From positions 14,696,001 to 14,760,000 of the forward strand of contig CM119371.1 in the NCBI GenBank assembly GCA_051294905.1: a stretch of DNA of 64,000 nt, read 5' to 3'. The notes below the pieces were generated by a model, which was not told the DNA's origin, did no database searches, and saw only the letters and a program-made list of their open reading frames with translations. The translations under genes and the position numbers were made by a program. The stretch comes from Botryllus schlosseri (lineage: Eukaryota). Shown in pieces: positions 2,865 through 50,953 of this stretch (positions within the stretch are counted from its first letter, which is position 1; every line of letters begins with the position of its first letter).

Positions 2865-3436
2865 CTACTTGATTACATGTATTCCCGTAGTCGGTACTCT
2901 GACACGTAAGATATCTTGCAGCGTCGGTATATAATCAACTGTCCTTATCCTATCAAGATCGTTGAGGTAATATGCGGCTGAGTCTGGCAGTTGATATTCA
3001 CTTCTTCGACCATAGCATTTCTGTATTCCTTGATCATTCCACAACGACTGTATCGCTTCTATGTGGTGAGCGAACTGATCATGTGTTCGCACAGCACGTG
3101 TATCCAGAGCTACCAATACACTTGCATGTGAGATATTGTCTGGGTTCGCGTATCTAATCTCTAGAGTGGACATAGCCTGTATCAATTTTTAATGGCAGTG
3201 TAAATGTCGACATGAACCAAATGTGTAAAGTCACCGCGCTCGGAATCACTGTATCCTTTCCCGTGAATGATGCGCATTTGTTTGACAAAGGTACTTTTCC
3301 CACTTTCTCCGGTGCCCAGCAAAAGTAGTTTGAGTTGTCTTCTGACTTCATATTTCGTCTCCTGTAATTCGTTTTCAATCCTCGAGTTTACTCCCCTACT
3401 ATTATTTTGTTCTTCCGTTAGACAGCATTTATTCAT
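2865..3436 (-). pseudogene. Intronless G-protein alpha subunit, Gq class; frameshifted and C-terminally truncated
   Basis: [10 protein letters not shown]..., [76 protein letters not shown] 1-nt deletion at ~3184 (AAT TGA T instead of AAT TTG ATA) shifts the frame. Homology stops just after switch I. Confidence 0.92.
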
Positions 3437-3784
3437 TCTATTCCAGTAAAACAACCAAGCGTATTGATTGGTCACGTTTATATCTGCCACAAGAATGTTT
3501 TAACGATGGGTGTAGTCACTTGAATTGTTAGCCTACGCTGTCTCAACTGCACGATATAACCATTATATGTTGTGATATTGCATCAGGCAACCTTTAATCG
3601 CCAAAGGCGCTAGTCAGAACCTAATAAATTAATATTTAGGCCTAACGCAGGACGCACGCATTTTGGTGACAGTTTATGTTGTCTGACATTCTGCGGTAGC
3701 CTTGTGCTCAATAGTTAGAGTGTTTGTTTCTTTAAGAGTAAAGTCTCAATCATGAATCTCATGATATTTGACTTTGTATTGTAT

Positions 3785-14945: not shown

Positions 14946-16313
14946 TCGTTTTGAAAACTGACCACCACACCGGTCAATTTGATATTTTTGTATATTGTTA
15001 CAACGAACAGTGACAAAATATACACCAACAACGACTCCGATACATTTGTGTAATCGCATACTCACTTGTTCTGGTGCATCCCATCAAAATTGACGGTTAG
15101 CCACACACACACACACACACAATAACAACGCGCTATTTCGATATGACGGCGGTGTCCGGGTTCGTGCTTTAGATTTTCCAGAATCAATCCGTCTGAAGTT
15201 GTAATCCCGCGACTTTGTTAACTGGTTGATACACGCATAACAATCTTCGGAAAATGTGGGAATGCATGCTACCCATTGTGCGCACGATTCCAGGTTACTT
15301 GTGATTAATTTCCTTGCTCACACTATACAGATTATACGTACAGTGATATGTAGCGGTAATCGGTTTGGTCAATACATATCGCCCCATTTAGTATGGAATT
15401 ATAAACCCAACACAGGTCAGTCCATAACCGGATCCGGATATTCAATGCAAAGCGATAAAGCAGAACCAATGACCAAATGTAATTAAACATGTAGATTCAC
15501 AACCCTTGGTTTTTTTTTTCGTGAAAAATGACAATACATATCGAATATATTTCACGAGAGTTCAACCCTACCAAGTATTCACGTAAATGTGGTTTATGAC
15601 ATTACATACAATGTGTCGGTGTACAAATGTTGGGTGTTTATGCACACATCGGTATGACCTATAGACAACATCATCATACCCTCCAGGACTTCGTTATTGC
15701 ATCGCGAGTTCAATAAAATCAATTTTGTATATTCAATCGGTGGCATAGACGACGGAAGGCTTGGAGATCCAATGTAAAATTCAGACAAACAAACGGGTAT
15801 ATTTGTCCGTCTTGGTTATGCACTCAACTACCATTGGTGCTCTCGATACAGCGAACGGTACAGTATGCAACGCATATCATTATCAATATTTCGTCAATAT
15901 TCCGACTAGCCCACAACCTTTGCAATTGATGATCAAAGTCTACCGTTGGAAGAATCGGACGTGACATTATCTCTGATGTGTTCGCCGGAGCACATAGCCT
16001 ACATCCATTGGAGCCCAATTGGTTATTGCTTTGATGAAGTCCGCCAATTGCGTAATTCTATTTTGATATCTGTAGAGTTGAATCACGGGATTCGGCTTTG
16101 GTATGGCTGTGTGTAATCCTGTAAGTGGGCGCTAACATCGATCATTAGCTTTATTGTCGTACCAAAACAATTCAGAATAGCTGGTGCGTTTGAGAGAAGT
16201 GTATGCGTTCGCGCATTGAAAACGTGGCTATAAGGCAGTCGTTTGCTAATATTCCGTGTCCCGTAGAGATAATCAAATACTTATTAACTTACGTGCAACC
16301 TTAACATTTGTAG

Positions 16314-16438
16314 TGTGTATGAAAATTATGAATTTTACGAAACAAGGAGTATGGTGGTCGTGGTCGCATTGGGTAATGTGCAGAGGTGGCCAACGTACTC
16401 GGCGTTGCTACTCATTGGAAGTCGAAATAACGCCATAA
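16314..16438 (+). other. TSP1-repeat-like exon remnant
   Basis: After acceptor tttgtAG the frame reads GVWWSWSHWVMCRGGQRTRRC (WxxWxxW...C.GG.R.RRC), then stops at 16436. Confidence 0.4.
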
Positions 16439-16714
16439 ATTTCTACTCCATTGCAATGGAAAGTACCAATTTCAAGGATATGTTAAAACAACTTCAAGTA
16501 AAAGTACAGAATGGAGGTCTCATAAGTCACAAGTACCAAAATTGATAGTTCTATAAAGTAGATGCAATCGAGAAGTGGCATAATTTAGCAATTAATCGTG
16601 GGTGTCTACTTCTGGCATTGCCAAATGCGTTTTAGCGACGAACCCAAAATGAAAAATGATACTAGAAATAGGTGCACTTTCCGAAAATAAATTCAGTTAC
16701 CGTGATACATGGGC

Positions 16715-16870
16715 TGTTGTTTGTGGTGGGCATGGCATTTGTCGACTACTATGTTCATTTACAGCAGGCCCATATATTCTTTATTATAATTCCGTATCTG
16801 ACGACTTGTAGCACGACCCTTGCAGCGTCTTTTCAAGAGACCGCGTACGCGGATTAGGTGGCGAGGAGGA
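16715..16870 (-). mobile_element. SINE 3' fragment
   Basis: Reverse complement of the family tail (TTGTTTGTGG..TTTGTCGACTACTATGTTCATTTACA..GGCC..GCGAGGAG). Confidence 0.65.
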
Positions 16871-17632
16871 GTTTCGTCTAAATACTCGTTACTGAAAGAC
16901 ATGTAACTGACCTAAAGCACACGTTTCACACATACAAACAACGCACTTTACCCTTGACATATGTCACCGTGTTTAGGAGTGTATGTGACTTATTGATGTC
17001 CGGGCTACGCCCATATTCGAGTTTGCTTCATGCTCAGGCCGCGTAGTTCCGTCTCTTCATCGCGGGGATCGGATTCGCAATTTAGAACAATCACGATCAA
17101 GCTACACACTATAGAAATGATCCCTAAAAATATGATCTTAGTTTGTCGAGTCCAGTCGCGCGGTGATACTCGAAAAATGATATATAGCTTTAATGGTGAG
17201 CAGAGCATCGTATTTCTCTCTCTCTCCATCCCTCTACCTTTCTTCGCTGCCCACATGCGGATCGCTGATTTCATTCTCTAATCTGGGAGAGTTGAGACTG
17301 CTCTTGCATACGGATGGTAAAGTGAATTTTATCGCCCAACAAGAATTTCTGCTAAGCGTGTGATTATAAGTCTGAATGATAGACGAACGGGGCTACCGAC
17401 GGGATGACACATGTATGTATGTATATACATGGGCTATTTCGCCCGGTCGTTATGACGATTTCACAAATAAAGGTGATGTAAACGTACCCCAAAACTATTT
17501 CCTATTTCACAAAACTGAAAGTGTGAAAAATATGTAGTTTTGCTTAACAACTGAAACTGTAACCATTTGAGTATACTTATATACTTATACCACTTGAGTA
17601 CCGATACTGAATAGCTTACATCACGTTTCCAG

Positions 17633-17767
17633 ACCAACGAGGGTGCTTCGCTCCGAACGAATTGGGCAATTGTGAAACGCTGTCCAAGTATTTCTGCAGC
17701 AACACTAACGCATTCCACTGCTGTAATGGGGATAATTGCAATAGCCAAGATCCGCTGCTGAACTGGG
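17633..17767 (+). CDS. Exon: C-terminal half of Ly6/uPAR (three-finger) domain 1
   Basis: QRGCFAPNELGNCETLSKYFCSNTNAFHCCNGDNCNSQ (RGC...CCxxDxCN); bounded by tttccAG / GTGAG. Confidence 0.85.
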
Positions 17768-20700
17768 GTGAGATATTGTTTGTTTGTTTGTTTCGTGGTA
17801 TTCATGGTGTTTGTCGACTACTAAGGTCATTTACATCAGGCCGATATTCTTCATTTTCCGTAACTGCCGACTTATAGCACGGCCCACTTCTAGGGTTTTT
17901 GTAAGACACTGCTTACGCGGATGAGGCGGTGTCTTACAAAAAGGGGTGAGATATTGCGGATGGCACCGATTTAGATAAAACTATAGCGCATGTGTGCATG
18001 TAGCGTGGCGCGCACCATTTGCGGTTCAAGTTCGCATAATCACCAAATTTCCAAAAACTTCTGGTGTGAAAAAACACTGAAGCACTGTGACTGATACAAA
18101 TGCGAATTTTTGATATTTTCAATGACCCTCACTATGATTGCCTCCTCTACATAGATAGAAGGTTAATTTAACGATAAATCACCCCAGATGCAGTGATATG
18201 ACAAGCAGCGATGTAGGATGATACTAAAGAGCTAATTGGAGGTGCAGAACTCCAATATACAATTCAATATTATATTCATAATGAAATTAACCCGTGATGC
18301 GCTCGGAGAAAAGCTCACCCTTGATTCATCCCCTGAAACCTGATTCAGAACAGACAAAGGTCATGAATTCTTCCATTGGTAAGCATTTGTTAGATAATCT
18401 TGTTTGTGTGAAAGCTTATCGAGACGATCGATTTCGCATCGCCAGGAGAAGCCGTTCGCACCTTCATTTGTGTGCCTTGGAGTCGACTTTTTTAAAAATA
18501 CGCCAGCCAAGTCTGTACCAACAAAAGGAGTTCGTGTACAATCTAAAAATAGTGCATTCAGATTAAGCACTCTCATTGCTATGATTGTTTGAAATGTCAT
18601 GTTGGCGACGTAATACTTTGTGATACGATTGTCGCCATACAATGTTCCTTCCACTTCTCTCTATTAGTTGCTGACTATTACCCTGACGAGTACCAGCCAA
18701 ATATATTCGTATTCATTTCAATATGAATACACTATTCATTAGGAGGTGCTCTTGTTAAATGCTTTTTAATCTAAAAATGACGCTCGAAAACGTATGTGAG
18801 TATAAAAGATTTTGCAGCTCGAAGACGTGATACTGGAAGCAGGCTATGCTATTTTCAGCAATTGCGTCATTCCGTTAGTCCGACGTATGAATTACCGACC
18901 GGGACGCTTAAATTTCACCAAGACTATCGCACTATCGGCACGAATATTACTATTATAAATATAAAGCATTTGACGGGGCTATCCTGATGCATTCATCTCT
19001 TGCTTGTCTTTTGTGATCATGGGCTAGGCATATAGATCCAGGCCGATGAGGATATGTTAAGTTGGAAGTGAGTAAAACTGGTTGAATTCACCCGCACTGT
19101 AAAGACGTTGATCGATATATTGTCCTGTAATATACAATGTTGTTCAGCATCGTCTGTTCTAATACATATTCGTGATAACGTCATGACAGTTTTGTTCGTC
19201 GTGCCCCAACCGCCAATCGTCCCCCCATCTACCCGCAGATTCAATTGCAACATTTGCAATGGGTCTAAGAAAATCGAATAAAACGTAATCCCGAGTGAAG
19301 TTATGCTTGATACCAACTCTAAGTCACTCAGTACACCGACTATAATGTACGTACGTACACTCGATCTAGCCCAACAAGCACTTCATAACTAACGCTCACT
19401 AACGAAATCTCAACTTCTGTGCCGAATTGAAACATCACTATTATCAGGGCCGTAACTGCCGCACCCCAAACCCCCCAATTGGGGAGGCCGAGCTCGAAGG
19501 GGGCCCAAAATTATTTCGTGAATTAGCATAAATTATAGAGTACTTTTGGAAAATTTAAGCAACTTTATCAGAAATTTTTCGCGCTGCGCGCGATTTCAAG
19601 CTGCCAAATATCTTGAATATTGGGTACTCTTCCCACAATAAAAAATACCCAAGATTTATAGAAATGGGCATATCAGCGTCGGCCATTACCTGGCCACGGC
19701 GCACCAAGACGTATAAAGTTTTAGGCCATGCAACATGCGACTGCAAGAAGTGTGCCAGAACGATCGGCAGCGAGAAAACCTTGGCCGAAAAGGACTGCCC
19801 GTATGCTGACCGAAAACTTCGTTATATATACAAAATACATGTGGGTTTAATAGTCCATAGACGCCTAAATGACTGGCACCTAAATGTTCCTGTCTGGACA
19901 ATCTGAACCTCACAAGACAAATACCACCCCGCAGGGAAAAATTATATGCCAGTGCAGAAATACCAATTTGAAATCGTGAGATCTTCTAGTTTAGTACGTT
20001 TCGGCGATTGTATATTTTTGATATAGCAGACGAAATAACATCATGTAACGAAATCATACCAACGGGTCCACCTGCCCGAAGATGTTTAATTATTATTTAC
20101 GGGCTCTAAATTTCCAAGACAACACCTGACTCAGCTCTACCGGTAAATCTGATTACGTAAGCAACTGAGTGTAGAGGACAAGGAATTGATAGCAATATAT
20201 ATGCAATTCCCGATCTTATTGGCCGATTTTATCTTGAACTATCGAAAATTTTCGCGCTTCGCGCTGGCTTACTACGCAATACATCTATACTTTCGTGGCA
20301 AAGTGAACAACGTGGTGGCGGCCTGGAGGGTCGGTTTGTCACCCTATGGGAGCCCAAGACTCCAGTTTTTTGGGGCCTGACGAAGTGCTGTTTCGTTCCT
20401 GCCAACGGGTATACAATACATCCGGTCCTACCCTTTCAAGCACAACTCACTCTGCTCTACCGGTAAATCTTATTACGTGAGCAGAGAAAGGATAAAAATT
20501 GATAGCAATATATATGCAATTCCTGATCATATCGCTCGATTCAGTCATGAATTATAGAAATTTTTCGCGCTTCGCGCGTTTAGACGGTAAAAACTGACTC
20601 AGTAAACGGCCCCCCGATATAGATGATACGCAGCGGTGAACAACGTACAGCCTGAGGGGAGTCTGGGGGGCTTCGCCCCCCATAAGTTAGGTTTATCACC

Positions 20701-23700
20701 CTATGGGGGCCCAGGACCAACGTTTTGGGGGGGGGAGGCTGACGAAGTGCTGTTACGGCCCTGACTATTATGTACTCATCGTTTTAAAAGCTCCGAAGAT
20801 ACCAACAAACTTGGTGAGTTACGTGACTGATTCATCGGTTGAGCTGTCGTGGGATCCCATTTGCATCGGAGATTATCGTTATGACGTAGAATATGCAAAA
20901 TTGCTTGGCGGAACAACTGCAGGTCAAGACCACACAACAGTCGCGGTATACACGAATGCGGTGAGTACTGAGTAGGCATATATGTGGATTTGCTACTACG
21001 CAGTTGCGAGATAGTCATAATCACTAAAAAAAACTAGGTGGAATGGGTCCTACAGCTTTGTAACAGAAGCTGGGCGCGACCGTTCGAATAGTCGAATGGA
21101 GTAGCTGGAGTTGATATTTTCTATTGCCGAAGTTATGACCCTTCCGTCTAGGAATTGTGTTTGCTGTAACGACGCTTATATCGCACCGTGAGACTATATC
21201 TAAGCCATTTTGATTCCATTGTTAGTGAATGGTTGTTACTCCGACTCTCTGATGTAATCGCATAATGATATACTTACTTAAATACAATTTTCTGGTCTTC
21301 TTTCACTGCGTGTGACATCTTAGTTACTTGTATTAGACTGTTCAGCTCGATACTAAAACTGGACTCAAAAAGAAGGAAGGCATGTCAAAATATATTAGCT
21401 ACCATCTTTCACCATCTGCATCGCCCAGTTGTCATGGCAATTTTTCATGCGAAAGCGATACAAATCTCCCCACGTACTACGCTCTACTATTGACAAAACT
21501 TGAAATATATAAATGAATTATGTTTGCTGCGGAAACTGTCGTTGAAGTAGAAGTGGCAGTGATCTAACACGAAACCGCTTGAGTAAGCTAAGTAGCAAAA
21601 TTGCACAAAACTTACTTGAGTATTTCGCAAATAGGATTAGGCTACTTCGTAACTGACCAAGTGACCATTCCTGACTGTTGTGGCTAGTTTCGATCCACTA
21701 AAGTCAAATATTCGTACGGGACAGAAACATTTCTTTGCTGATACAATGCATCTATTTACCAGATCGAGGTTGGTTCGCTGGAATCCGGAAGTTCGTACCT
21801 TTTCCGGGTGAGATCATATCACGGCGGAGTTTTCAGTGCGGCCCAGGCTGTCGAGGCCTCAACACTCGCGACATCAACAACAACAGGTCTGTGAAATGTG
21901 ATAGGGTGAAGACATCGTACGAGAAATCATGGTGCAGATGTTGACTGTTGTGGTGGTAGGTCGTGTGCAGTAGCGCACTCGGGAAAGGTTGGTTTTCGAA
22001 ACCGAAACCGCGACCTTCTGAAACGCCAATTACATCTCCAATATGTAGAAGCAATGTGTTTAAGCGACTGGTATTACGCTGTTGCGTATCGGTCGAACAA
22101 TTCGATGACACTTTCCAAGGTGTAGCGGTGAAGCCTCCCATTTGTGAACTGATGTCTGAATGGAAACAGTAGAAGTCATAGTGATTTTCGATAAATATTC
22201 ATTATAATGTTCTATTTAGTAAAATGTTTTCGTTCTTTTAACACTCTGTTGATTAACCTGATGTACAGTTCATTTTATACACCAGTAATCTATGGTGATG
22301 TATTAGATGTCTAGTTAGATGTGGATTGCGGTAGATTTTTGTTCTTATGACTCGTCGAAAATTTCGGGTCTACGAAGGCTTGCAGTTTAGAGTAACTGTT
22401 CCGCGGGTTGGTAAAGATTAAGAACCACTGATCTATAAACAGAGGGAGTGCAAGTGCTCGGCGATGGTAATCAAATAGAAGTAGAATCAACGCCTGATTT
22501 TTCAACTCCATTACAAGTTGCCATTTCCAAGGCATGTTAACACTACTTCAAGTGGGAGTACAATATGATTGGTATTAAAATCACTAGGGTTTACCTTACA
22601 CAAGTTAGAATTACGGAAAGTTTTTGTTGCAGTTAAATACGTGGAAAGTTGCACTTATTATTCACAAAAGTTGCATTTATGGACAGGTTCCCTGAAATTT
22701 TTAGGGTATGAGCAGAGGTGGTCCGTAACGAAGTACTTCTACTTTTTCGAAGTACTCAAGTAGTTTTCCTCTACTTCTGGTACTTACTCAAGTAGATCTT
22801 TTTCCCGATACTTCTACTTTGTAATATTTTGTGAACTATAATTACTTACTTTACGCTATTTTCATTTTGTCAAGTAGAAGTAGTTTAATCCCCCAAGAAG
22901 ATAGCCAAAGGAATTTCTGGGCTGTTTTCACGTAGTACCAACATTTAATTTTCAAGTCATGTAATACCAAGCATTTTCGTTGTGCTTCGCGCCAATGTTC
23001 CCTCTAAGCTGCGCACGTGCGCAAATGCGCAGTGCTGAAACGGTCTCTGCGCACAGAAAATCAACGCTACGCACAAAAAATCAGAAATGATGTTTTTTTT
23101 ATAGTTGTTGCGCACTGTTGTCCAATGGACCGCGCAGACGCGCAGATTCGTGAAAATTAAGATGGAACATTGCCAGGGCCAAATAGTGTTATCACTGAAG
23201 TCTGAAACCGAAGTACATAAGTGCGCCCTGCAAAGGTAACTATTTGCGCTCCGTGAAGAAATGAGAGTTCACAATCACCTGCGCCTCAAGGCAGATATTT
23301 TTTTTAGTATGGCCTCGTACACGTGAGCGATACTGATATCATTTCATTAGCGCATTATTTGCTGGGAATGGGGAAATAGCATGGTTTAACAAAGTTATAA
23401 ATAACAACGGGCTAGCTCGAAGTTAATCTGCGAGAAACTAACGAATGATAGTCTTCTCCGCGTGGCATGGACATTGCGTAAGATTTACTCAGGACCGTAA
23501 CTTTCGCACCCCAAACCCCCCAATTGGAGGGGCCGAGCTCGAAAGGGGTCCAAAATTATTTCGAGAATTAACACAAATCATGGTGTATTTTTTGAAATTT
23601 TTCAGGAATTTTTTTTTCGCGCTACGCGCATTTTATTATTCTAAGATATCTGATTATTGGGCACCCTTTCCCAACAAAAATTAGGCATGATTAATAGAAA

Positions 23701-26700
23701 TGGGCAGTTGGGCGTCGGCCATTATCGCACCATGACGCGCCAAGACATATGAAGTTGAAGGCTATGTAACATGCGATTTCAAGGAGTGCGCCAGAACGAT
23801 CAGCAGCGAGAAAACCTTGGGCGAAAAAGACTGCCCTGGTGCTGACCGAAAACTTCGATATATACAAATATATGTGTAATTGTCAGGGCTGTGGAGTCGG
23901 AGTCGGTGGAGTCGGAGTCGGGTCGATTTTCGCTTGATGGAGTCGGAATCGGAGTCGTGAAAACTATAATAGCTGGAGTCGGAGTCGGTGGGAAAATACT
24001 GACTGACAGTTTGTGAGAATGACTATGACTTCGACTCCGACTCGAACTTCTCTATCATGAAAACATTTGCTTTCAAAGAATTTTCAATATAATTTTTATG
24101 TACCACCAATCACTTTTAAAATTAACCATACAGATCAGGCGCGGCCAGCCTGTGGCACGCAGGCCAAATTTGGCACACGAGAAAATTAGGTGTGGCCTGC
24201 GAGGTAATTCTCGAAATTATTTACGACATCAGGTACAATTGCAAGGCCAACCAAAATTTGATTAGCATGACCGCGAAATTTGATGATGACTAAAACAACA
24301 GTTCTGACGCATTGACGTATCCAGGGGTCAGCCACATTTATCCCATATCTTCGTATATGACCATGAAGTAGAATATTTCATAGCAGATTTATTTGACTTG
24401 AAATTTTTCTCGGTACTTCGCATGATTCATTGTCGCTAGATTTCTTGCATTCAGTATTTGAGCCCCTTCTGAAAATTATAAATACATATAATTCACAGAA
24501 TTGAGTCTATTTATATTCTCAATTAGGAGATACGGCTTCGCTTGTGCACTCGCAGCGAGATCGTCGACAAAACATTTGCACAAAATGATAGAGGCATGTT
24601 CACTGACACCGTCGATTTTGCTGTCTAAACGTCGAGACGGGGTGTCCGAGAAAACAAAGAATTAGTATCGCATTATTTCCATCTCAATGCTATTATTTAC
24701 ATCCCATGATGTGGACGACTGCTTATTTTGTCAAAAATTGACACCTCCTGAGATGTATCAATATGAATCAAGCTCTCTACCCCTTCCTAATAGCTTCATT
24801 TGCAGCTTTTGACAGTCCATGCGAACGAATTACGATCGTTTTCACAATTACTTACTTACTTGAGTAGATTTAAAGTCAGTCAATTCTACTTCAAGTAGTT
24901 TTAGGTTGCTTATTAAAGAAGTACTTCTACTCGTACTTGAGTAGATTTTTCTTCAATACTTCTACTTCTACTTGAGTAGCTTTCTTGACTACTTTGACCA
25001 CCTCTGGGTATGAGATACCGGAATGGTTCCGTATCGAAGTCACTCCGGCAAAAAACCAAATGTTGGCGACACCAACATAATCAAAATCCTGAAAAAAGTG
25101 ATCCAGTGAAAATATAATTTCTGGCGGACTGGCCTGAATGTACGTCTAATCAAAAAAGACCTCAAATTTAAACGACGGTGAAATAATCAAGCGATCTATT
25201 TACATAGAGTGCCAACTATTTTCCAGTTGCATGAAAAATAGAAGAAAAAAAACTTGCAAAATATTGCATGAAAATTGAAAAATGTTGCAAGATTCCTTCA
25301 AGCAGTTTGAAACACAATACTACACAACTTCTGAGTATTTAGGAAGCTGCCAGAAGTTGTAAAAAAAGTTGCAAAAGTTGCCAAGATTGCCATTAATAAC
25401 ATAATGCATTTTGCAGTTAATCGGAGATGGGTACCTTCGAAATTGCAGGTTGCGTCTGCTGTCTGCACGGCTAACGCAAAATCACTAATGACGATGCAAA
25501 TAGGTAGAATCCTCGAAAATATGTTCTGTTAACGTGATACAAAGGTATTTCACGCGATTCTTAAAAATGATGAAAACCTTTCCCAAAAGTACCATCTGCT
25601 TTTAAAATCAAAATTATAATAAATTATCAGTTTTAGCAGAGTGGAATTTGTAAATGCTACCGGGCGAGTCATGTGATTGCTTGTTAATATGGACTTTGTA
25701 TTATGGGCCCTTGATTCATGGTGCGAAATGACTTGGTAGTCGGTGCACCAATTTCCCCTTATTCAACCAACCAACCACCACTTCATGTATGAAGGATTCC
25801 GATCTGGCAACCTGCATACATACGGTTAAGTCAGTAATTCCTACAATCCCATTCCAGGGGCAAAGTGCTGGGTGACCGACAGGTATTTCGAAGCTGAAAA
25901 CTACTTGAAGACATGTCCTAATTCCGGTGACTGGTGCTTCACGCAAGCCGAATACTTCGCGAATACTTCGGAACGGTATTATATATATGGTTCGTCGTGT
26001 CAGTACACGATTGGCGCAAATATTTTGACGAGTTGTTCGGCTGTGTTTTGATTTTTTCAAGTCGAAGTAGAAGTAGCACCATAAATTTCTACTCAATGAC
26101 AAGTAGCAATAAAATTAGCAATTTCGAAGACACGCCAAACTAGAAGTAGAAGTAGAAAATGATGATCTGAAATGTACTCGAGCACGTATGTCTTAAAAGT
26201 AGATTTGGTAGTTGGTTGCATACTTTTGACAGTTAATCGGAAATAAAAAATATTTTTTTTTATCAAATTAATGCACCACGATATGGTGATATGAGGAGAA
26301 GATAAAAAAGTGGTGCCGAAACCCCTTGTTTGTTTGTGGTATTCATTGTGTTTGTCGACTACTGTGATTTTTCACACCAGGCCGATATCGGTAAGGCTTT
26401 TCTAGACACCGCTTACTCGGATGAGCTGGCGAGGAGCGTAGGTAAACTTCCAATATTGAGGTATCGGAATTCTGAAGTAGGCCTCGGGCGGACTCGAACC
26501 CGCACCCATTGGTGTTGCAGTCGCGAATTATACCACTGCGCTATATTGCCAGTCTCTGAAGCGACTTGCAGCAGTCTATTATTCAGACACCCCCTTTGGT
26601 CTACAGCGTGTATAAATAAGAGGCAAGCACAGTGTATTTGAAAAAGGATAACATAAAAAGAATCAAGATGATCAGACACGCTACGAAATTTATACTGTGT

Positions 26701-29700
26701 TACCTAGACACGGCGGTGATGACGCCGAGTTGTCATGAAAATTCCGTTTGGTAAAAATGATGCAAACTTATCCCAAAACTAATTTCTACTTTATAAAATG
26801 CAAAGTGTCGATAGTAAGTAGTTTTGCCAAAAAAATCTACTCGAACAGAAGTGTTAGTAGTCTCAAAGCATAACCACTCGAGTATCGAATAAATTAGAAG
26901 TACTTCGTTATTGGTCACCTTTGAGTGGGTTAACCATTCTCATCGGCCATGAAATTAAAACAAAACACTAATGACCTTCAAGTTAAAACGTCAATACACT
27001 GACCACGAGAGAAACTCTACTAGCTATCAGCAATACCGGGTGGTGAGCTATGGCGTAATTTGTTCAACCTATTCAGGCTTCATTCGAGAGGTTGCATGAG
27101 CGAATCTGATTGTCAGAAATACGTGGCATCCAATGATAAGGCTTGTAAGCCTGGAGAGATCGGGGCGGTGTGCCACTTTTGCTGCAAAGGGCAATACTGT
27201 AACACAGTAGAGTGGACCTACTCTGGTAACTACCCTCTTTCTGTCCATTGATACCATGAAAAGTATCAGTTGCCACAGCTAATATGCGTTTACCGACAAT
27301 ATACATGTTTCCCGGTAGGATTAACCTGCGAAAATATACCCGTCGAGGAACGTATACATTGCGGATGGAGCGGTATGCCAATAGCGGCTTGTCTTCAACG
27401 TGGGTGTTGCTACGTGCCGTCCAATGATACAACGGCGTGGTGTCATCACGGAAAATGTAAGATATCGTCACGTGCACTTCGTTGTAGCCAAGTAGTTTGC
27501 CAAAGTATGTACGGCCGATTTGAATAGGAACGCAATCAGAGGTGATCAGTAACAAAGTACGCCATTTGGGGGGGGGGGTACTGGAGTAGATTTAGCCTAT
27601 ACAGTACACCTGATACTTAATGCTTGAATAACTGCTTCGTGGTACAAAATTAAAGATTGCTTTCATCAGAATATCCATGGTCATAGTAGGGCCTACATTA
27701 ATTATCACTTGAAGAATTATCGGGTGGATCTGTTCAAGAGTTATCGCCACAGTAAAGGGATTCAAACAGATTCAAGGGTAAACCCAATATGGTACAGTAT
27801 GACGTAACCCAGCGGTCTCGAACACGCGGCCCGCGAGACCATTTTGTACGGCCCGCGACGGCATTTTGGATTTCGACGTACTCGACAATATTCAATAAAC
27901 ATTTTTTTTAATTCGAGAACTTAAATTTCGCTCTAAAACTACTCCAGAAGCCAGAAACTACTCATCAAACTTCACTATTACATCACTTTCAAAATTTAAG
28001 ACGCAGCGGAAGCTTATATATAACGTGACACCACTTGTTTAAGATGGTTAAACGTGACCCGTTAATAATTCGTACTGAAAACTCTGATTTGGACTTCGGT
28101 GCTATCTTTTGTAGAATTACTCGAACTCAATGGGTGATAAAATAAAAATGACTTGAGTTGAGTCGCGTCAAAAGATACAATGACAGAAGTACTTTTGTGA
28201 CGTGGAACGCCGTGACTTGGTACAACCACGGACGAAACAAACTATCAAGCAGATATTGAAAATAGTAAAATATCAAAAGGTCGTGGCTTGCGTTTCGTCG
28301 CTATTTAGATATCTAAGCAGGTCGGTATGGTAACCATGTATAGTTGTTTACATCCTGCGTCATTTTGGGTATCTTTATCCATGTTATTTTCGCCAATTAA
28401 ATGTGGCGAGTATAAAGTAGTCGTAGCCTACGCTTCAAATCTGTAACACAAATGGATTCTTCGGCGATTAGACATTTTTATTGCTATATGGCACAGTAGT
28501 CGACATATTCAAGTTGTCATTGATCTGTTCAAATATTCGAAGATAAACCTAACGCTGATTTAATTTGATTTTGGTAATGACATGATCAATAGCCTAGTTA
28601 TCAGGAGTATACCCGGGACCCGGATTAGGCTGTACTGCTCCAATGCTCTGATATCAAATCAATCTTTGTAAAATTATAAAATTCTACCTCTCTAATTGCA
28701 GCACGTCAAATGTCCGCTGAGCTGCAAAATTATAACGCGACAGCTTTTACGATGTCCTGATGCATTTGTTCTCTCGCGTCTACAACTAATTATTTTGACA
28801 AATTATGCAAAGTAGGCCTACAGCAGCAATTTTATTGAAATGTCTAAAAATGTTATTTTTTCGTGCCAAGCGTGAATTCACGATAGTAAATCACATTTTT
28901 ACGATGCGTGTGGAATGTCAGTCTGAAAGGTCCCATCAAATAAGACCTACTTGGAAATACATTGAATTCCCCTACTATTGGTGCTGCGGCCCGCGGTGCC
29001 AGCAAAAAAGAAGGAAATTGACCCGCGAGCACATTTGAGTTTGAAACCTCTGATGTAACCAATAAACTTACAAAACATGAAATTCGCATTGTGCAATACT
29101 AGCAACGACAATTGTTGAAACGACAACGGCACATACAAAACAAAGAAAACTAATGGGGCATTTGTAAATTACACAGAAACACGTTTCAATCTTGATGACA
29201 AACTTCAGTCATTGCCTACGTTAAATGGATACGAGTTTCAGCCGAAAATATTCGAGTATATTTCACTATACATGTATTATTATATTTGTAACACCCGCGA
29301 TTCGGCGTAGGTGCCGACTGTTACAATCAATTACCAGGGTGTCACAAATTAAATTTTATCGACAACAGGGCCCTAGATAGCCTACTCGGCGTCTTCATGA
29401 CATTTTCGGATCCATGCTATCACTTTAGAGACGGAAACAGTATCCGAATTGGATCAGGATTTTATCTTATCGAACATGATTTCATCCGAACCGCGTAAAT
29501 CTTGACGCGTTCCTTCCTATTGACCACATGATGTCAAACTTATTGTTTCATTGCAGTTCCTGCTGCACCGGCGATCGCTCAGGCACAGTCTCTCAGCGCG
29601 TGGGTGATTGTGCTGATAGTGCTATTTATCCTATTTCTGATCATTGTCGTCGCCATTATCGTATGCTGTTGCCGGAAAAGACTAAGGGTGGATTGCACAG

Positions 29701-32700
29701 ATGTCGATTAATCCCTAATCGCCGATTAAACGTCAGTAATCGGCTGGCTTCCGTGGCACAGATGCCGATCTGCAACTAATCGGTGAATTTTAATCGGCCA
29801 AATGTTATCCGCCGAGAGAGGTGTCTAGAAAGTTAATCGGCTGTGTGCTTCGCGTTGACTGCGGTCCGGGCAGGCTATAGGTACACTAGTATTTGGTATT
29901 GAGATGGTGTTAACTGGATGCTCTGACGTGCAGTTGCGGTATTACTTGAAAATATTGTACTCAGACACTACTACAACTGTTGGCGCATATTATGGGCGTG
30001 GGCCTACCACAGCCGATAGTACCTTATGCTATGATTACCGGTATGACATTTTTTACAGACTGTACACTGTACAGAATTCGATAGTATACTTTGGTAATAA
30101 AATACGAGGACGGAAAATTGCAACAGACAAGAAGAGTTTAGAATAATTGAATTGATAGAAGAATATATTGAAACCAAGGAAGACAAAAAGACTGATGGCA
30201 AAACAAAAGATGCGGCCTGAGATGTAATGAGTAAGAAATATGCAGCTATGAATACTAGTCCTGCGCGTGCAGCCGTACAACTGGCCAAATCCAGAATGTA
30301 TTGAAAAATTTGAAACGAAAAGCAAAAAAGACATATGCATCACAACGCGTCGAACGGGCCAAAACTGGCCCACCTCCAGTTGACGAACTCCTTGGAAAAG
30401 GTTTTTGATAGGAAATTTTACTGGCAATTCTTTAAAATTCGCAGTAGGAGATGTATTGTTTCCATCCGTGTGTATCGTGACTCTCTGCGTGCTTCATACT
30501 CACGTTTTAACGCTCGTTTTGAACTGAATAGACAAATTTTGATGATCATGAAAACATGGATTTATTGTATTTTTGTAATTCCCAACAAACTAACCATAGC
30601 CAGAGACTGCTGCACGTCATCAGCTATACGAAAACGACACATGGGGAACACTGCTCGGCAAATTCCTAATCTGAAATTGATTTTTATAGCACTGGTATAT
30701 TTATTATCACTTTTCAGACCTTCTTCCATCTCAAATTGAATGTTTGAAACATCGGTATGACTACGATTGCGTATTCGATAGTCACATGATGGTGAGTGCA
30801 TTTAGGACATCAACTTTTTTAATATGTTACAACCAACGGCAGAGGAACTTGCATCCAATTTTAACTTGCAACAGTCTGGCTTTGTTACTGTGCGTGTGCA
30901 GGTGCCTGAGCAGTATCGTTGGCCATTATTATTGTTAGGCTTGCAACTTGACTTGAAGATTTGACTTCGAGTCAGGATTTCTCATACCGTATGTCATATT
31001 GAAGCAGTGACTCGAGTCAAATCCATTCATCCTATTACAACTCGAGTCAAGTCATGATTTTAGTCCTCCATGCTTCCTATGTTTCGCGGGGTTAAGATAA
31101 ACCGTGAAAAAATCATTTGAAAGTAACTTATCTAATGTATTTCTAACTAACATTTTTAAATAAAATGTTTATTCAGATGCATATTCCGAAGATTCAGTTT
31201 GCACCTTCATCATCGACGAGGATGTGAACACAGAGGCTGGTTCTTTATGTCACAACAGCGATGGTAAGTTGAGGTACTAATTTGAAATCCATATGAATAG
31301 TGTTGGTACTAACATAGCCACACGAATACTTCAAATAGAACATTGCGGGTTGTTTTGATTGACATTAACATTGCTCTATTGAATTTGAACTCTATTGAAT
31401 CAATACAACTGTTGTTAACCATAGTTTTCTTGCAGCAAATGAAATTGCTGCCTTTTCGTTGCTGATGGCGATGTGACGCTTCCTTCAGTTCCCTCGACAG
31501 ACTTCAGGATGGAACACCAGACCGGTAAGTGTTAGCATACAAAGATGGTGATGCAACCCACAGTTTATTCATTACTACATTCAGATATGCAAGATGAAAC
31601 AGAGAACACAAAAAGCTCAACGGCAATTGTCTTGAAAAAGAGAGCCAGGTGTGTTGCTGAAAAATCATATTTTAACTATAATGTTGGTGATCAAAATGTG
31701 GTGTTCAGAAATGAGCGTCCTGGAAATGGCAAAGAAGCAGCATGATATCAGAATGAAATATTTTGAATTACAGATGCATATCAAGTACCAGAAACTGGAA
31801 ATGGAAAAAGAACTGCAAAATTGAGAAAATACAGCAACAAATCGAAATAGCACAAAAACCAGACTTGGACAACTAGTTAATTGGCTGTATAATTAGAATA
31901 GTAAGTGCAAAATGCCAGTAATATATTTCTAACTTAATTTATGGTTTTGCTGAAAATTCTACAGTAGAACTCTACAATACTTAGTAGAGTTGTGCAGATT
32001 TCCAAATTTTCACATATTCAGTAATCCCTATTTTGATTTAATTGAAAAATGACTACTGTGTCTATAATTATATTCTAATTTGGAAAAATATGCAGCCATA
32101 ATTATCATCATAGTCTAATAATTTTGAAAATCTGATTTTCTAGTTGTCCAATTCTGACTACAGCATAGGTTACTGGATCTCGTAATAAAAATAATTGAAG
32201 AGGAATTGAATGTGTGGTTATTGGTGTTCAAACACGAGATGAAATACTCAAGACATTGTAGAGAAGTGATTTTGAACAATCTATCTGCGCTGAAGTCGTG
32301 CTCGGTTGTGCCTTCACGTTATCGTGTCGCTAACCTCCAGGGTATATTCCGATGGATTTGCTCGGTCTTTGACCAATCTTCTTGGCACTCTCTCTTCTGC
32401 TAGGCTCTCTAACATCTGGAGGGTAGCAAGAACATTGAGGTATGGATCCATTGCTATTCTCAGTCGATATTGCACTATATTAATGTAGCTCTCTATAAAA
32501 CAGGTTGTATTGAATTTTATGGTTGACCAAATTCTTGATAAACTGAAGTGGGGTTTGGCTGTCAACAAACAAGATTACTCAACTGGGTAACAGCAGATAA
32601 CTTTGCATTGCAAAATTGTAACATAAATGCATTACTGTTGGTACAGCACTTGAACACATGTATGCATATGACTTATTATATGATAACATCGTCACATTGC

Positions 32701-33969
32701 ACAACAGTTAGATCCTTGCAATGGCTGAAATTTACTTCTACACTCCCGCAGAGCCAATTGTCATTGGTATGGAGAAATCAAAATGGTACGGTATGCAAAT
32801 GTGTGTGTATGAGCTCAATTTGTATATCTTCACATTGGTAAAGCGGCTATCATGACTAATGCACCAATAAACGGAAAATATAGTTCTATCTGAAAAGTAT
32901 CTATCTAGATCTAGATCCCTGAGTAATGAGATAAATGTCCTGCAATATACGAAATTTGTAGTAGAGTTTCTGGCACAGCAATACCGGTATAAGACGAAGA
33001 TTTCGGTACGCTATTCCTACAATACCTCTTTTCATAACCTCAAAACGTTTGTTCTGACGGGTTCTGACGTTCATAACCTTACACTGTGCAGTAGCAACAG
33101 CTTAGTTAGCTGCTATACGCACATGACATCAACTAAACATACATATCTATGAAGAGCTCATCTCTCCGTTATGACGACACAGTTCATATCGCCACCGAAC
33201 GAAAACAGCTGATTGCTAACGTACGTCATTTGCGTCGATTTGCGTCAGTAATCCGCGATAAGATAACTCACAGGCGAATCCGTATCTGTACCACAGAGTC
33301 GCCAGGTGACCTTGCTCGCTGATTAAATTATCGCCGATTAAGGCAATCGGTGATTACTTTTCAATCGGCATCTGTGCAATCCACCCTAAGAGAGAAACAG
33401 AAAGGGTCGTATGACGTTTACGCGGTTAGTATAACGATGTTAGTATTTCCTTAGGTTCGTGTGGCGGTATAGCGTAGTGGCATGTTCCACTGCTGCGACA
33501 CCAATGTGTTGCGGGTTCGAGTCCGACCGATGTCGACTCCAGAATCCCTATATCCGACTCCCAACTGGCCATTGCGGGCTGAACTAATGTTTGCACGGGA
33601 TCGTATGCCATGATAATCTATTTTGTGAACTGCGCGCACAGCCGGAATCAGTGGAACATTTCTTGCTGAAATATCCGAGATTCAGCAACTACTCACTTAA
33701 GTTCTTTTAATACGATTCACCTCTACTTCCAATTGATGTTGCTTAAACATTAAACATTTAAAAATTGCTACTTTTATTTCTACTTCAGTAGCAAGACTGA
33801 AAACTTTGACTTTTTCTGATTATTACACTAGGGTTGCGTATACTGAATTGTAAGTGCAGGGTTGCTAACGATTTACCTTCAATACCAGATCCCAAAATCT
33901 CGATGCGAAAGAGGACAGAACATTTCAACTGTATCGAGAGAATCTTACGACAACATGGTCATCGATTGA
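17633..33969 (+). CDS. Multi-exon type I membrane protein: Ly6/uPAR - FN3 - Ly6/uPAR - trefoil - TM - cytoplasmic tail; 5' end not found; TM exon disrupted by Harbinger
   Basis: Exons 17633-17767, 20791-20960, 21763-21886, 25858-25975, 27077-27225, 27319-27456, 29557-29685 + 33390-33424, and 33889-33969. All are AG/GT bounded; intron phases 1,0,1,2,1,1,0 join into one stop-free frame. Confidence 0.88.
17777..17932 (-). mobile_element. SINE 3' fragment in intron
   Basis: (GTTT)n followed by the reverse complement of the family tail. Confidence 0.7.
18340..18700 (+). mobile_element. Penelope-like retroelement remnant (GIY-YIG endonuclease C-terminus)
   Basis: SSIGKHLLDN..C..AY..DRFRI...HLCALESTFLKIRQPSLYQQKEFVYNLKI, resembling the typical PLE ORF end. 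Confidence 0.75.
19445..20763 (+). mobile_element. Non-autonomous hAT element with internal direct duplication
   Basis: TIR CAGGGCCGTAAC / GTTACGGCCCTG; TSD ACTATTAT at 19437-19444 and 20764-20771; other copies at ~23489, 58790-59971 and 63370-64000. Confidence 0.9.
20791..21886 (+). CDS. Two exons (20791-20960, 21763-21886) encoding an FN3 domain plus Thr-rich linker
   Basis: APKIPTNLVSYVTDSSVELSWDP..YRYDVEY.. | IEVGSLESGSSYLFRVRSYHGGVFS..STLATSTTT; phase-0 junction. Confidence 0.88.
22713..25006. mobile_element. hAT element with AGTAG/CTACT subterminal repeats carrying nested insertions
   Basis: TIR CAGAGGTGGTC / GACCACCTCTG; TSD GGTATGAG at 22705-22712 and 25007-25014. Nested: MITE 22993-23172, hAT fragment from ~23489, (GGAGTC)n element from 23883, hAT end at ~24137. 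Confidence 0.9.
25858..27225 (+). CDS. Two exons (25858-25975, 27077-27225) encoding Ly6/uPAR domain 2
   Basis: GAKCWVTDRYFEAENYLKTCPNSGDWCFTQAEYFANTSER|LHSRGCMSESDCQKYVASNDKACKPGEIGAVCHFCCKGQYCNT; phase-2 junction. Confidence 0.88.
26326..26550 (-). mobile_element. tRNA-derived SINE, near full length
   Basis: GGCAATATAGCGCAGTGG (A box) ... GGTTCGAGTCC (B box), then body and (AAAC) tail shared with the other fragments. Confidence 0.8.
27319..27456 (+). CDS. Exon: trefoil (P-type) domain
   Basis: CENIPVEERIHCGWSGMPIAACLQRGCCYVPSNDTTAWCHH shows the six-Cys trefoil pattern (R..CG, C...GCC, WC); phase 1-1 exon. Confidence 0.92.
27810..29052. mobile_element. hAT/Charlie-type non-autonomous element in intron
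   Basis: CAGCGGTCTCGAAC..CGGCCCGCG / GTTTGAAACCTCTG; TSD ACGTAACC vs ATGTAACC. Confidence 0.82.
29557..29685 (+). CDS. Transmembrane exon, 5' part (continues at 33390-33424)
   Basis: PAAPAIAQAQSLSAWVIVLIVLFILFLIIVVAIIVCCCRKRL after the acceptor tttcattgcAG. Confidence 0.9.
30127..30380 (+). pseudogene. Harbinger Myb/SANT-like DNA-binding gene remnant
   Basis: QEEFRIIELIEEYIETKEDKKTDGKTKDAA*DVMSKKYAAMN..RAAVQL..LKNLKRKAKK..RAKTG; the conserved Trp codon is TGA and there is a frameshift. Confidence 0.75.
32248..32451 (-). pseudogene. Internally deleted Harbinger transposase (N-terminus fused to C-terminus)
   Basis: MDPYLNVLA..RVPRRLVKDRANPSEY is joined directly to ..RARLQRR*IVQNHF; the DDE core is absent. 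Confidence 0.6.
33463..33560 (+). mobile_element. tRNA-derived SINE head
   Basis: GGCGGTATAGCGTAGTGG..CACCAATG..GCGGGTTCGAGTCCG; homologous to the copy ending at 26550. Confidence 0.75.
33889..33969 (+). CDS. Probable last coding exon of the membrane protein (cytoplasmic tail)
   Basis: Branch-like GCTAAC and acceptor taccAG; phase 0; reads IPKSRCERGQNISTVSRESYDNMVID*. Confidence 0.65.
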   Translation: MPKSRCERGQNISTVSRESYDNMVID

Positions 33970-50914: not shown

Positions 50915-50953
50915 CTTCAATATAGAAATATTCTTGACAAGTGATTGGTGTCC

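Follow-up and report, generated by a model that had tools for sequence, protein, structure and literature searches.

Are the open pieces at positions 17633–33969 of this 64-kb stretch of Botryllus schlosseri DNA (the window, to which all coordinates refer) the exons of one gene, and does that gene still work? A sequence-only reading had joined eight AG/GT exons here into a single open frame for a receptor-like protein. On inspection, the canonical AG/GT borders and compatible phases hold, but nine pieces have to be joined, all on the + strand (17633–17767, 20791–20960, 21763–21886, 25858–25975, 27077–27225, 27319–27456, 29557–29687, 33395–33424 and 33889–33969, with the stop codon). They represent eight ancestral exons, one of them split by a transposon. 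This locus, called copy A below, has 359 open codons, canonical sites at every splice border and 8 of 8 ancestral exons open. Its introns, described earlier as filled with transposons, do contain multicopy repeats, but a Pfam domain search found no protein domain of transposons in them, transposases included.

The pieces were compared with a predicted protein of another ascidian, Styela clava LOC120337675 (P0001, 431 aa). In a tblastn search of P0001 against the window, the second half of the first Ly6/uPAR (LU) domain (LU1b), the first half of the FN3 domain (FN3a), LU2a, LU2b plus trefoil, the transmembrane (TM) piece and both tail pieces were recovered in order, with E-values from 2.7e-35 to 0.04; the FN3b piece gave no row in this search. 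In a full-length alignment, the conceptual product of copy A is colinear with P0001 residues 63–430 at 49% identity. The predicted exon series is far beyond chance expectation. Scanned singly with Pfam, one of the nine stretches scored above the cut-off (the trefoil), three were sub-threshold and five had no match.

The first piece (17633–17767) encodes the second half of LU domain 1, ends in CC-x4-CN, is in phase 1 at both borders and matches P0001 residues 63–106 at E 4e-10; its splice sites are conserved in the paralogues B, C and D described below. The first half of FN3 (20791–20960, donor GCG/gtgagt) matches P0001 at E 2e-11 and Pfam fn3 weakly (E 0.072), and the second half (21763–21886, acceptor tatttaccag/) aligns in the full-length P0001 comparison and in the paralogue comparison. 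LU domain 2 is also divided. Its first half (25858–25975; E 1e-8 to P0001, paralogue comparison) is joined in an X1 contig to 27077, skipping 1101 bases, and its second half (27077–27225), which carries CC-x4-CN, is placed by its splice sites, by tblastn with P0001, by the paralogues and by the X1 junction. The P-type trefoil exon (27319–27456) scores well above the Pfam cut-off (PF00088, E 3.8e-11, 43.1 bits versus 21) and is 78% identical to Styela clava LOC120337675 in a protein search (E 9.5e-18). The TM/tail exon consists of two parts: 29557–29685, which encodes the stalk, the TM helix and a basic stop-transfer stretch and closes with the TAA target site (29683–29685), and 33390–33424, encoding the conserved KGSYDVYA tail motif, with a match to P0001 and the donor GCG/gttagt. 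These parts are contiguous in paralogues B, C and E. The final coding exon, which carries the stop (33889–33969), matches P0001 residues 400–430 (E 0.011) and is retained in B, C and E. Bases specific to copy A include T at 17706, 17724 and 27146.

To place the protein, P0001 was searched against 1.84 billion representative sequences, which gave 123 matches in total. One other match spans nearly the full length: Ciona intestinalis LOC108949297 (P0002; XP_018667607.1, 434 aa; E 3e-65, query 10–412). A 307-aa form from Clavelina lepadiformis (P0003) matched query positions 12–294, and its cluster contains the 434-aa CAK8697929.1; shorter LU-FN3-TM relatives were also found, and the rest of the matches are single-domain. 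Identity to the copy A product is 33% for the Ciona and 30% for the Clavelina full-length protein. All three predicted proteins have the domain order given by the sequence-only reading, namely, behind a signal peptide, LU, FN3, LU, trefoil, TM helix and tyrosine tail. Since they are full-length predicted proteins from three ascidians, the architecture is, at the level of sequence, real and apparently ascidian-specific. The claim that it is uncharacterized stands in part: a literature search found no paper characterising an LU-FN3-LU-trefoil-TM protein, but the family is already catalogued, as 'uncharacterized protein' in Styela clava and Ciona intestinalis and as 'unnamed protein product' in Clavelina lepadiformis.

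The individual domains were assigned with differing clarity. In P0001, Pfam scored Trefoil (1.6e-10) and fn3 (1.6e-07) above and CD59 (6.3e-05) below the cut-off, and the family profile matched CD59 in the PDB (8b0f_G, E 7.3e-05, profile positions 6–102). LU2 has no Pfam match in the copy A exons, P0001 or the relatives; it aligns with LU1 by hhalign over 62 columns (probability 56%, E 1.1e-4). Confidence is low in both structure models used for fold comparison (mean pLDDT 58.9 and 56.6). With this in mind, the FN3 of the P0001 model matches 7y8h_B (Z 14.8, rmsd 2.0 Å, 91 residues aligned), and the top match of the LU2 model is Lynx2 (Z 4.2; Foldseek probability 0.97, E 0.06); behind it come further LU proteins, ectodomains of TGF-beta receptors and three-finger toxins.

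Copy A also has relatives in its own genome. Paralogue B lies at +147 kb and C at +961 kb from it on the same chromosome; in both, all nine exon pieces are present with lengths and splice sites conserved (C has 3 additional bases, in frame), and both are 50–51% identical to P0001 residues 23–430. Over the exons that were checked, B and C are intact, whereas D, E, F and G are broken or fragmentary. With copy A included, the genome has two copies that are intact to this extent and about five that are broken or partial. On these comparisons copy A is a member of a small, tandemly scattered gene family, and the earlier assignment of its exons to one gene family is upheld by the colinearity with P0001 and the exon borders of B and C.

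The signal peptide and first half of LU1, which had been expected to emerge from 5' RACE, are absent from the locus and from the 64-kb window. The homology of B, C and D to copy A begins exactly at 15886, with 87–90% identity onward, and nothing upstream aligns; on this homology, 15886–17632 (+ strand) is a remnant of the LU1a–LU1b intron. Adjoining the 5' end of the gene homology is a multicopy repeat (15300–15882, no strand assigned) with 519 candidate copies in the genome. Forty copies scored besides the window's own are 96–99% identical and all end at query position 581–583 (window 15880–15882); copies often form inverted pairs ~1 kb apart. Within the entire window, tblastn gave no match to the LU1a part of P0001, and no LU1a-like or signal-like exon was found for copy A. 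A genome-wide search placed LU1a exons at B, C, D and the orphan fragment G alone (4 of 4 candidates), and the candidate first exon at the same four loci, where its signal peptide would have just ~11 residues. Fragment G overlaps copy A by ~750 bp at only 88.8% identity and is thus not its lost half. As the homology of copy A starts inside the intron after LU1a, the locus as assembled is missing its start codon, its signal peptide and the front half of LU1, the part that matches P0001 residues 1–62.

A 3,701-bp non-autonomous DNA transposon (29686–33386, no strand assigned) lies inside the TM/tail coding exon. Its terminal inverted repeat begins GGGTGGATTGCACAGATG, the inverted arms span 29682–29727 and 33345–33390, and the TAA target duplication is found at 29683–29685 and 33387–33389. 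A genome search yielded 135 candidates, among them 39 full-length matches elsewhere, on many contigs, at 96–100% identity, which makes at least 40 nearly identical copies in all; at least six of the others match the end of this transposon at 100% identity. By the similarity of its copies, the element is young. Its ORFs have no Pfam domain. The insertion site is empty in B, C and E, and Styela likewise has one exon here; paralogue D reads straight across the site, and its frame breaks a few codons later. The gap 29688–33394, counted as an intron in the sequence-only reading, is ruled out as an ancestral one, the transposon splitting what is a single exon in B, C, E and Styela. Read-through from the first part of the exon into the transposon meets a stop after eight more codons. 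A GT at 29688, in the inverted repeat, and an AG at 33393–33394, just past the target duplication, would permit in-frame removal with the loss of one codon.

Transcript data cover the locus thinly. Junction 25975 to 27077 is present in contigs of X1, which was taken as RNA-like by guess, and junction 27456 to 29557 in X1 contigs and in one X9 read (27456 to 29557/8). Two of the eight junctions needed are thus among the 15 of 41 joints listed, but the X1 contigs have a non-A base at all six diagnostic positions listed and therefore derive from other copies or alleles. X1 depth is zero across 21170–22503, including the FN3b exon (21763–21886), and the RNA depth over copy A exons reaches at most ~1x in X5, X7 and X9 (sampled at 6–13%). 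On the A branch, 21 changes fell in 1074 exon columns (13 synonymous, 8 not) versus 84 in 2240 intron columns (Fisher's test, P 0.006), and pN/pS was 0.18 (binomial P 1e-4). The damage therefore looks recent; given this purifying selection, copy A was functional through most of its past and may even work now.

The most probable reading of copy A is a paralogue that was disabled recently. Two lesions would account for this: loss of the signal-peptide and LU1a exons, with a break adjoining the multicopy repeat, and the landing of the young transposon in the TM/tail exon. With its first two exons lost and a transposon in a coding exon, copy A is probably disabled; 17633–33969 would then hold its last eight exons, with the intact B and C further along the chromosome. 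The full explanation, a damaged, probably disabled member of an ascidian family with a putative receptor-type function, we regard as likely.

That copy A still works is improbable in our judgement. An unrecognised upstream exon would have to supply the start codon and signal peptide, and the transposon would have to be spliced as a new intron (GT 29688, AG 33393–33394), leaving the tail one residue shorter. The open 359-codon frame, the canonical splice sites, the low pN/pS of the A branch and the removal of the transposon that is possible on paper fit this. However, the window has no LU1a-like or signal-like exon, half an LU1 domain lacking LU1a would leave cysteines unpaired, the implied donor AGG/gtggat and the acceptor context look weak by eye, no joint from 29687 to 33395 is among the 15 of 41 listed, and the RNA variants listed are of the non-A type. 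Slightly less probable still is an assembly error or a rare allele behind either lesion or both, with copy A complete on the real or common chromosome: past constraint on the A branch accords with this, and both lesions adjoin repeats that are very young and high in copy number, a setting in which assemblies often go wrong, but the clean TAA duplication, perfect transposon ends and a site that is in frame in the paralogues form the pattern of a true insertion, and the assembly has no spare LU1a exon assignable to A, its overlap with A excluding fragment G. Chance open frames or parts of separate genes, a reading to which the poor single-stretch Pfam results could appeal, are refuted in practice and have a negligible probability, given the colinearity with one Styela protein, matched also by the Ciona and Clavelina proteins, the identical exon set and borders of B and C, and the two junctions present in contigs.

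Seen as a probably disabled copy, A can be compared with known proteins. The Styela, Ciona and Clavelina relatives share with it the domain order, cysteine patterns, a single trefoil just above the membrane, cysteines beside the TM helix and a tail motif with two tyrosines; they differ in that copy A lacks the part matching residues 1–62 and has a transposon-split TM/tail exon, and beside them the Botryllus genome holds several copies. Likeness to LU proteins (CD59, Lynx2/LYPD1, PSCA) is seen in the C-x-x-C start, CC-x4-CN end and CD59-like spacing of the paralogues' LU1, in UPAR_LY6 above the cut-off in the short-form relative P0006 and in the predicted fold of LU2, whose best matches are LU proteins. 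Unlike these, the family protein is predicted to be TM-anchored, neither GPI-linked nor secreted, combines LU with FN3 and trefoil, and has an eleventh cysteine in LU1 and an LU2 that lacks the C-x-x-C start. Its trefoil retains the P-type signature, all six cysteines together with the conserved Arg and Trp, as in TFF1–3, acid alpha-glucosidase (GAA) and maltase-glucoamylase (fold matches: GAA, Z 4.0, 32% identity; TFF1/TFF3, Foldseek probability 0.91), but TFFs are small secreted peptides, whereas this is a single membrane-proximal module of a TM protein. With TGF-beta/BMP/activin receptors the family shares a three-finger module with a CC-x4-CN end on a type-I TM protein, and their ectodomains turn up repeatedly, with weak scores, when the LU2 model is compared by fold; it differs in having no kinase domain, a tail of ~45 residues and the additional FN3 and trefoil, and Pfam Activin_recp has no match in P0001 or the relatives. 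Among trefoil proteins specific to tunicates, Ciona Epi-1 is the only one known to have its function published; according to the available text of its report (bioRxiv 10.1101/2024.09.30.615758), it lacks a TM domain and acts like a cytosolic protein of the epidermis. As described there, Epi-1 shares tunicate restriction, a signal peptide and the P-type trefoil with the family, but has several trefoils and no LU or FN3 mentioned, and belongs to a different gene family.

The tail defines the family further. Two tyrosines, the second within (I/V)-Y-x-x-P, are conserved in 9 of 12 aligned sequences, namely those reaching the tail. Of the tail motifs pointed out earlier, KGSYDV lies within the conserved KGSYDVYA, but SYDNM is unconserved beyond this lineage, and the juxtamembrane CCC pointed out with them is a change private to copy A (YCC in the paralogues and Styela). 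SH2 domains of Crk, Nck and Abl read pYxxP, as known from the literature on SH2 and kinase specificity. Copy A adds a probably disabled new member to a family known from databases yet unstudied. For the family protein we propose a type-I membrane protein that crosses the membrane once, through a TM helix preceded by a short stalk, with palmitoylation likely at the juxtamembrane cysteines. Its trefoil would bind glycan at the cell surface and/or its LU and FN3 domains would bind a protein partner there, and phosphorylation of the tail tyrosines may recruit SH2 adaptors of the pYxxP-reading kind.

Coding pieces of copy A, the copy of the receptor-like gene in the window, were located from the stop-to-stop frames of the + strand and then joined by splice-site and phase bookkeeping. 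Nine pieces with AG/GT borders were obtained on the + strand (17633–17767, 20791–20960, 21763–21886, 25858–25975, 27077–27225, 27319–27456, 29557–29687, 33395–33424 and 33889–33969). Their phases are compatible, and the joined open frame spans 358–359 codons. When the 431-aa product of Styela clava LOC120337675 (P0001) was compared with the window by tblastn, the exons for the second half of the first Ly6/uPAR three-finger (LU) domain (LU1b), the first half of the FN3 domain (FN3a), the first half of the second LU domain (LU2a), LU2b plus trefoil, the transmembrane (TM) segment, and both tail pieces were recovered colinearly, with E values from 2.7e-35 to 0.04; the FN3b piece had no row in this search. 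The conceptual product of copy A is 49% identical to residues 63–430 of the Styela protein, with junction residues that fit it, and the trefoil exon reaches 78% identity. The LU2a exon found no match in a word-based protein search that included longer targets. Residues 1–62 of P0001 have no counterpart in the window, so copy A falls short of colinearity with the full protein; two paralogues on the same contig (C1), B and C, each align over residues 23–430. Judged by its sequence, copy A is a member of the family by descent, and an incomplete one. The sequence-only reading, which had proposed a hidden receptor-like gene at 17633..33969 with the order LU-FN3-LU-trefoil-TM-tyrosine tail, was right to place Cys-rich, FN3-like, trefoil, TM and tail pieces on the + strand, as the frames, splice borders, phases and colinear match to P0001 all attest. 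Its observation was thus largely correct and the architecture is real, but the architecture is already catalogued among uncharacterised proteins and the locus is both incomplete and hit by a transposon.

The relatives of the receptor-like gene that are closest are ascidian proteins throughout. A HMMER search with P0001 against 1.84 billion representatives returned 123 hits at E <= 0.001, in which Ciona intestinalis LOC108949297 (P0002; E 3e-65) was the sole further near-full-length match. A 307-aa form from Clavelina lepadiformis (P0003) matched query residues 12–294 (E 1.7e-34), and its cluster also contains the 434-aa CAK8697929.1. Three unnamed clusters of 248–275 aa consist of LU-FN3-TM-tail only, and the other matches cover FN3 alone or trefoil alone. 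In the word-based protein search, P0001 retrieved only itself. LU-FN3-TM proteins with the same two-tyrosine tail motif are also encoded by unnamed contigs of ~1–1.8 kb (P0005, P0006, P0013 and P0126–P0130). The existence of these short relatives suggests that the LU-FN3 pair and the tail form the older unit, to which LU2 and the trefoil domain were added in the long form. The short form P0006 had no match in the Botryllus genome, a result that is uninformative either way. Since such proteins are already catalogued, as uncharacterised entries, the suggestion that the architecture was undescribed does not stand; the searchable literature yielded no paper on the LU-FN3-LU-trefoil-TM family and no function for it. 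In the searchable literature, the only characterised tunicate-specific trefoil protein encountered was Ciona Epi-1, which is reported to lack a TM domain and does not belong to this family (bioRxiv 10.1101/2024.09.30.615758).

The Pfam comparison proposed in the sequence-only reading was run exon by exon on copy A, and the trefoil piece alone passed its cut-off (PF00088, 43.1 bits against a cut-off of 21, E 3.8e-11, profile positions 1–42 of 43, six cysteines). The FN3a exon, which is half a domain only, stayed below threshold (PF00041, 13.7 bits against 25, E 0.072), and the LU halves scored nothing. In the family proteins, both Trefoil and fn3 exceed the cut-off; the FN3 domain of P0001 scores 31.9 bits in PF00041, and in the AlphaFold model of this protein (pLDDT 58.9) the FN3 part matches solved FN3 domains (Z 14.8, rmsd 2.0 Å, 91 residues aligned). 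Fold searches with the whole model gave lists filled by FN3 matches alone.

LU domain 1 of copy A consists of its C-terminal half only (17633–17767) and not of the full module running from C-x-x-C to CC-x4-CN. Elsewhere in the family this domain scores near the Pfam cut-off for UPAR_LY6 (PF00021) or CD59 (PF25152): UPAR_LY6 gives 25.7 bits against 24.8 in P0006, the score in P0003 is 20.9 bits, CD59 reaches 23.1 bits in P0001 against a cut-off of 33.9, and the family profile matches CD59 in the PDB (E 7.3e-05). LU2 has ten cysteines and a CC-x4-CN ending, gave no Pfam hit in copy A, P0001 or the relatives, and aligns to LU1 by hhalign with a probability of 56% (E 1.1e-4). The best match of an LU2+trefoil model (pLDDT 56.6) was Lynx2 in both aligners (Z 4.2, rmsd 4.5 Å, 70 residues aligned; Foldseek E 0.06, probability 0.97), followed by other LU proteins, TGF-beta-receptor ectodomains and three-finger toxins, and by TFF1, TFF3 and GAA for the trefoil part; nothing in these searches reached Z 5 or a Foldseek E of 0.001. 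Weak one by one, these matches to a predicted structure are mutually consistent.

Members of the Ly6/uPAR family are usually GPI-anchored or small secreted proteins, whereas copy A encodes, in place of a GPI signal, a hydrophobic stretch of ~23 residues, basic residues and a cytoplasmic tail. Fragment rows in alignment A1 were misaligned and were set aside. In an alignment of 12 family sequences, the FN3 cysteine is nearly invariant, and all nine sequences that reach the tail carry the motif Y-[DEV]-x, a spacer of 1–4 residues and [IV]-Y-x-x-P. In copy A the two-tyrosine (I/V)-Y-x-x-P motif is present as KGSYDVYA at 33390–33424 followed by IP from the last exon. Two further motifs singled out earlier are less general: conservation of SYDNM does not extend to Ciona or Clavelina, and the CCC juxtamembrane site, although seen in copy A, owes its form to a Y-to-C change peculiar to this copy.

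The 5' end of copy A is missing. In B, C and a third paralogue, D, the exon for the first half of LU1 (LU1a) lies 4.4–9.1 kb upstream of LU1b; it begins with C-x-x-C and ends in a phase-1 donor that completes the split codon with which LU1b begins. No LU1a match was found in the 64-kb window, and inspection by eye of the interval 3.5–17.6 kb revealed nothing convincing as a signal peptide or LU1a. Across the whole assembly LU1a occurs only in B, C, D and an orphan 5' fragment, G (C1:15036226), and a conserved candidate first exon is likewise confined to these four. This candidate shows a TATA-like box, an ATG followed by eight hydrophobic codons, and a phase-1 GT. The homology of B, C and D to the window starts exactly at 15886. 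The 583 bases before it (15300–15882) form a multicopy repeat with at least 519 candidate copies that ends at 15882, and 40 copies scored besides the window's own are 96–99% identical. Elsewhere this repeat often occurs as foldback-like inverted pairs ~1 kb apart; at copy A only one arm is present, at the point where the gene is cut off. Fragment G (C1:15034236–15043775; loci L023, L024 and L026) comprises the candidate first exon, LU1a and part of the next intron, contains a 5-kb insertion and has no downstream exons. It was ruled out as the lost 5' half of copy A, because the two overlap over ~750 bp at only 88.8% identity, and G is at least as similar to B, C and D.

The second lesion lies in the exon for the TM helix and tail motif. 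In B, C and a further copy, E, the TM helix and KGSYDVYA are encoded by a single uninterrupted exon ending GCG|gtaagt, and the Styela protein is continuous there too; in copy A the two halves are 3.7 kb apart. They are separated by a 3,701-bp transposon (29686–33386) with terminal inverted repeats and a TAA duplication at 29683–29685 and 33387–33389, the TAA target having been created by an A-specific A-to-T change at 29683. The interval 29688–33394, originally read as an intron, is therefore a transposon inside an exon that B, C and E have in one piece. Each arm of the inverted repeat measures 46 nt; the two are 83% complementary, with a perfect outer core. The transposon family numbers 135 candidates, with at least 40 copies on many chromosomes, and 39 full-length matches elsewhere are 96–100% identical. 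None of the 31 transposon ORFs of at least 45 aa had a Pfam match passing the cut-off (two chance-level hits, E 0.05–0.08, were to unrelated families), and the introns of copy A gave no transposase or other transposon domain beyond a few chance-level hits. Since this transposon copy has no Pfam-passing ORF, we consider it non-autonomous and its superfamily assignment tentative. It is tentatively PIF/Harbinger-like by its terminal repeats, TAA/TTA duplication and copy number, with no DDE transposase detected, an assignment that relies on the 3-bp TWA target rule of this superfamily.

RNA was mapped from one run of Logan contigs (X1, presumed to be RNA) and three raw RNA-seq runs, with 15 of 41 joints displayed. 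In one X1 contig 1101 bases are missing between 25973 and 27075, as many as the canonical intron 25976–27076 contains, and a skip 27456 -> 29558 is present in another X1 contig and in one X9 read. Variant bases at the junctions account for offsets of one or two bases at these joints; at 29557, for example, all paralogues have A instead of T. Exon depth in the raw runs was ~1x or lower, and X1 had zero depth across 21170–22503. At six diagnostic positions the X1 contigs carry the non-A base, and an X1 contig lacks any change private to B, C, D or E; the transcripts seen thus cannot be assigned to copy A. The transposon interior at 31175–32508 had the highest RNA depth of the whole stretch (7–15x in X5 and X9), in both orientations and with variant bases, presumably from other copies of the element.

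Copy A has 21 private changes in 1074 exon columns, 13 of them synonymous and 8 nonsynonymous, versus 84 in 2240 intron columns. Bases specific to copy A lie, for example, at 17706, 17724, 20867, 25901, 25964, 27146, 27209, 29557, 29665 and 33904. On the A branch pN/pS is 0.18 (P 1e-4), and exons have changed at half the rate of introns (P 0.006); copy A was therefore under constraint during most of the time since it separated. Comparison with Styela polarises four of the eight replacements, all four being derived in A. This past constraint, together with the involvement of very young repeats in both lesions, points to a recent disabling event, and we consider copy A to be probably disabled. 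We think it unlikely that it still works by using a different 5' exon and splicing out the transposon. The GT of the intron first proposed lies inside the inverted repeat and its AG is host sequence just past the TAA duplication, and removal between them would be in frame, minus one codon, such that use of this pair could represent an accidental new intron; read-through into the transposon meets a stop 8 codons in. The junction reads suggested as a check do skip the introns 25976–27076 and 27456 -> 29558, but none among the joints displayed removes the transposon. Of the few X5 reads, 2 of 2 at 17706 and 2 of 4 at 27395 have the window's base, a mixed picture in which no read is A-type throughout the positions it covers. 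It appears very unlikely that the lesions are an assembly error or a rare allele.

The intact members of the cluster are B and C, whose LU1b exons start at C1:14860252 and C1:15674458, respectively. Both keep all pieces, lengths and splice sites in an open frame, and they are 50–51% identical to P0001 over residues 23–430. D carries a deletion of 5 bases in its trefoil exon and its tail is broken, and F is a fragment. In E an in-frame Kelch open frame replaces the start of LU1b, and no alignment was obtained for the 5' part of the trefoil exon. At this locus (L010, C1:15343534–15344316, − strand) a 261-codon Kelch-repeat-like frame runs in frame into the last ~20 codons of LU1b; E is a Kelch/receptor chimera produced by rearrangement.

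The assembly around the window is eukaryotic and 495.5 Mb in size, and the GC content of the window is ~40% throughout. Four intronless BTB-BACK-Kelch open frames on the + strand (257–1963, 44628–46253, 50945–52573 and 61119–62744) form an array around the receptor-like locus; the second is broken by one in-frame stop at 45858–45860. None of the three complete Kelch ORFs was found by exact look-up in a collection of 15 billion proteins. Two adjacent open frames on the − strand at 2868–3499 are exons of a G-alpha gene (PF00503, E 2e-27 and 7e-19). One short repeat, recurring with similar translated strings, lies near or just behind several exons (16653–16850, 17770–17900 and 26300–26560); the contig word depth at these places runs into the thousands, hence the label SINE-like.

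From its sequence, the family protein would be a type-I surface protein in which a lectin-like trefoil domain lies close to the membrane and FN3 separates two three-finger modules. An interdomain bond may link the odd eleventh LU1 cysteine to the nearly invariant cysteine of FN3. The (I/V)-Y-x-x-P tail resembles the site favoured by Abl-type kinases and the pYxxP motif recognised by the SH2 domains of Crk, Nck and Abl. This likeness favours ligand-dependent tyrosine phosphorylation and adaptor recruitment, which palmitoylation of the juxtamembrane cysteines may accompany. The family might then represent a tunicate-specific class of surface signalling receptors, in which the trefoil lectin and the two three-finger modules sense a glycan or protein ligand and signal via (I/V)-Y-x-x-P phosphotyrosine docking, within a family in rapid birth-and-death turnover where copy A even captures a transposon turning into a new intron; we regard this proposal as possible but doubtful.

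For annotation, locus A is a partial, transposon-disrupted paralogue and not a novel complete gene, and the intact genes to study are B and C. The cluster illustrates how fast young DNA transposons and breaks associated with repeats disable copies in this genome. Tunicate-specific domain shuffling is clearly exemplified by the family, in which LU, FN3 and trefoil modules were brought together on a single TM protein, and it is conserved across three ascidian orders, the tyrosine tail strongly so. Ciona being genetically tractable, a knockout and localisation study is straightforward, and the family itself would repay functional study there.
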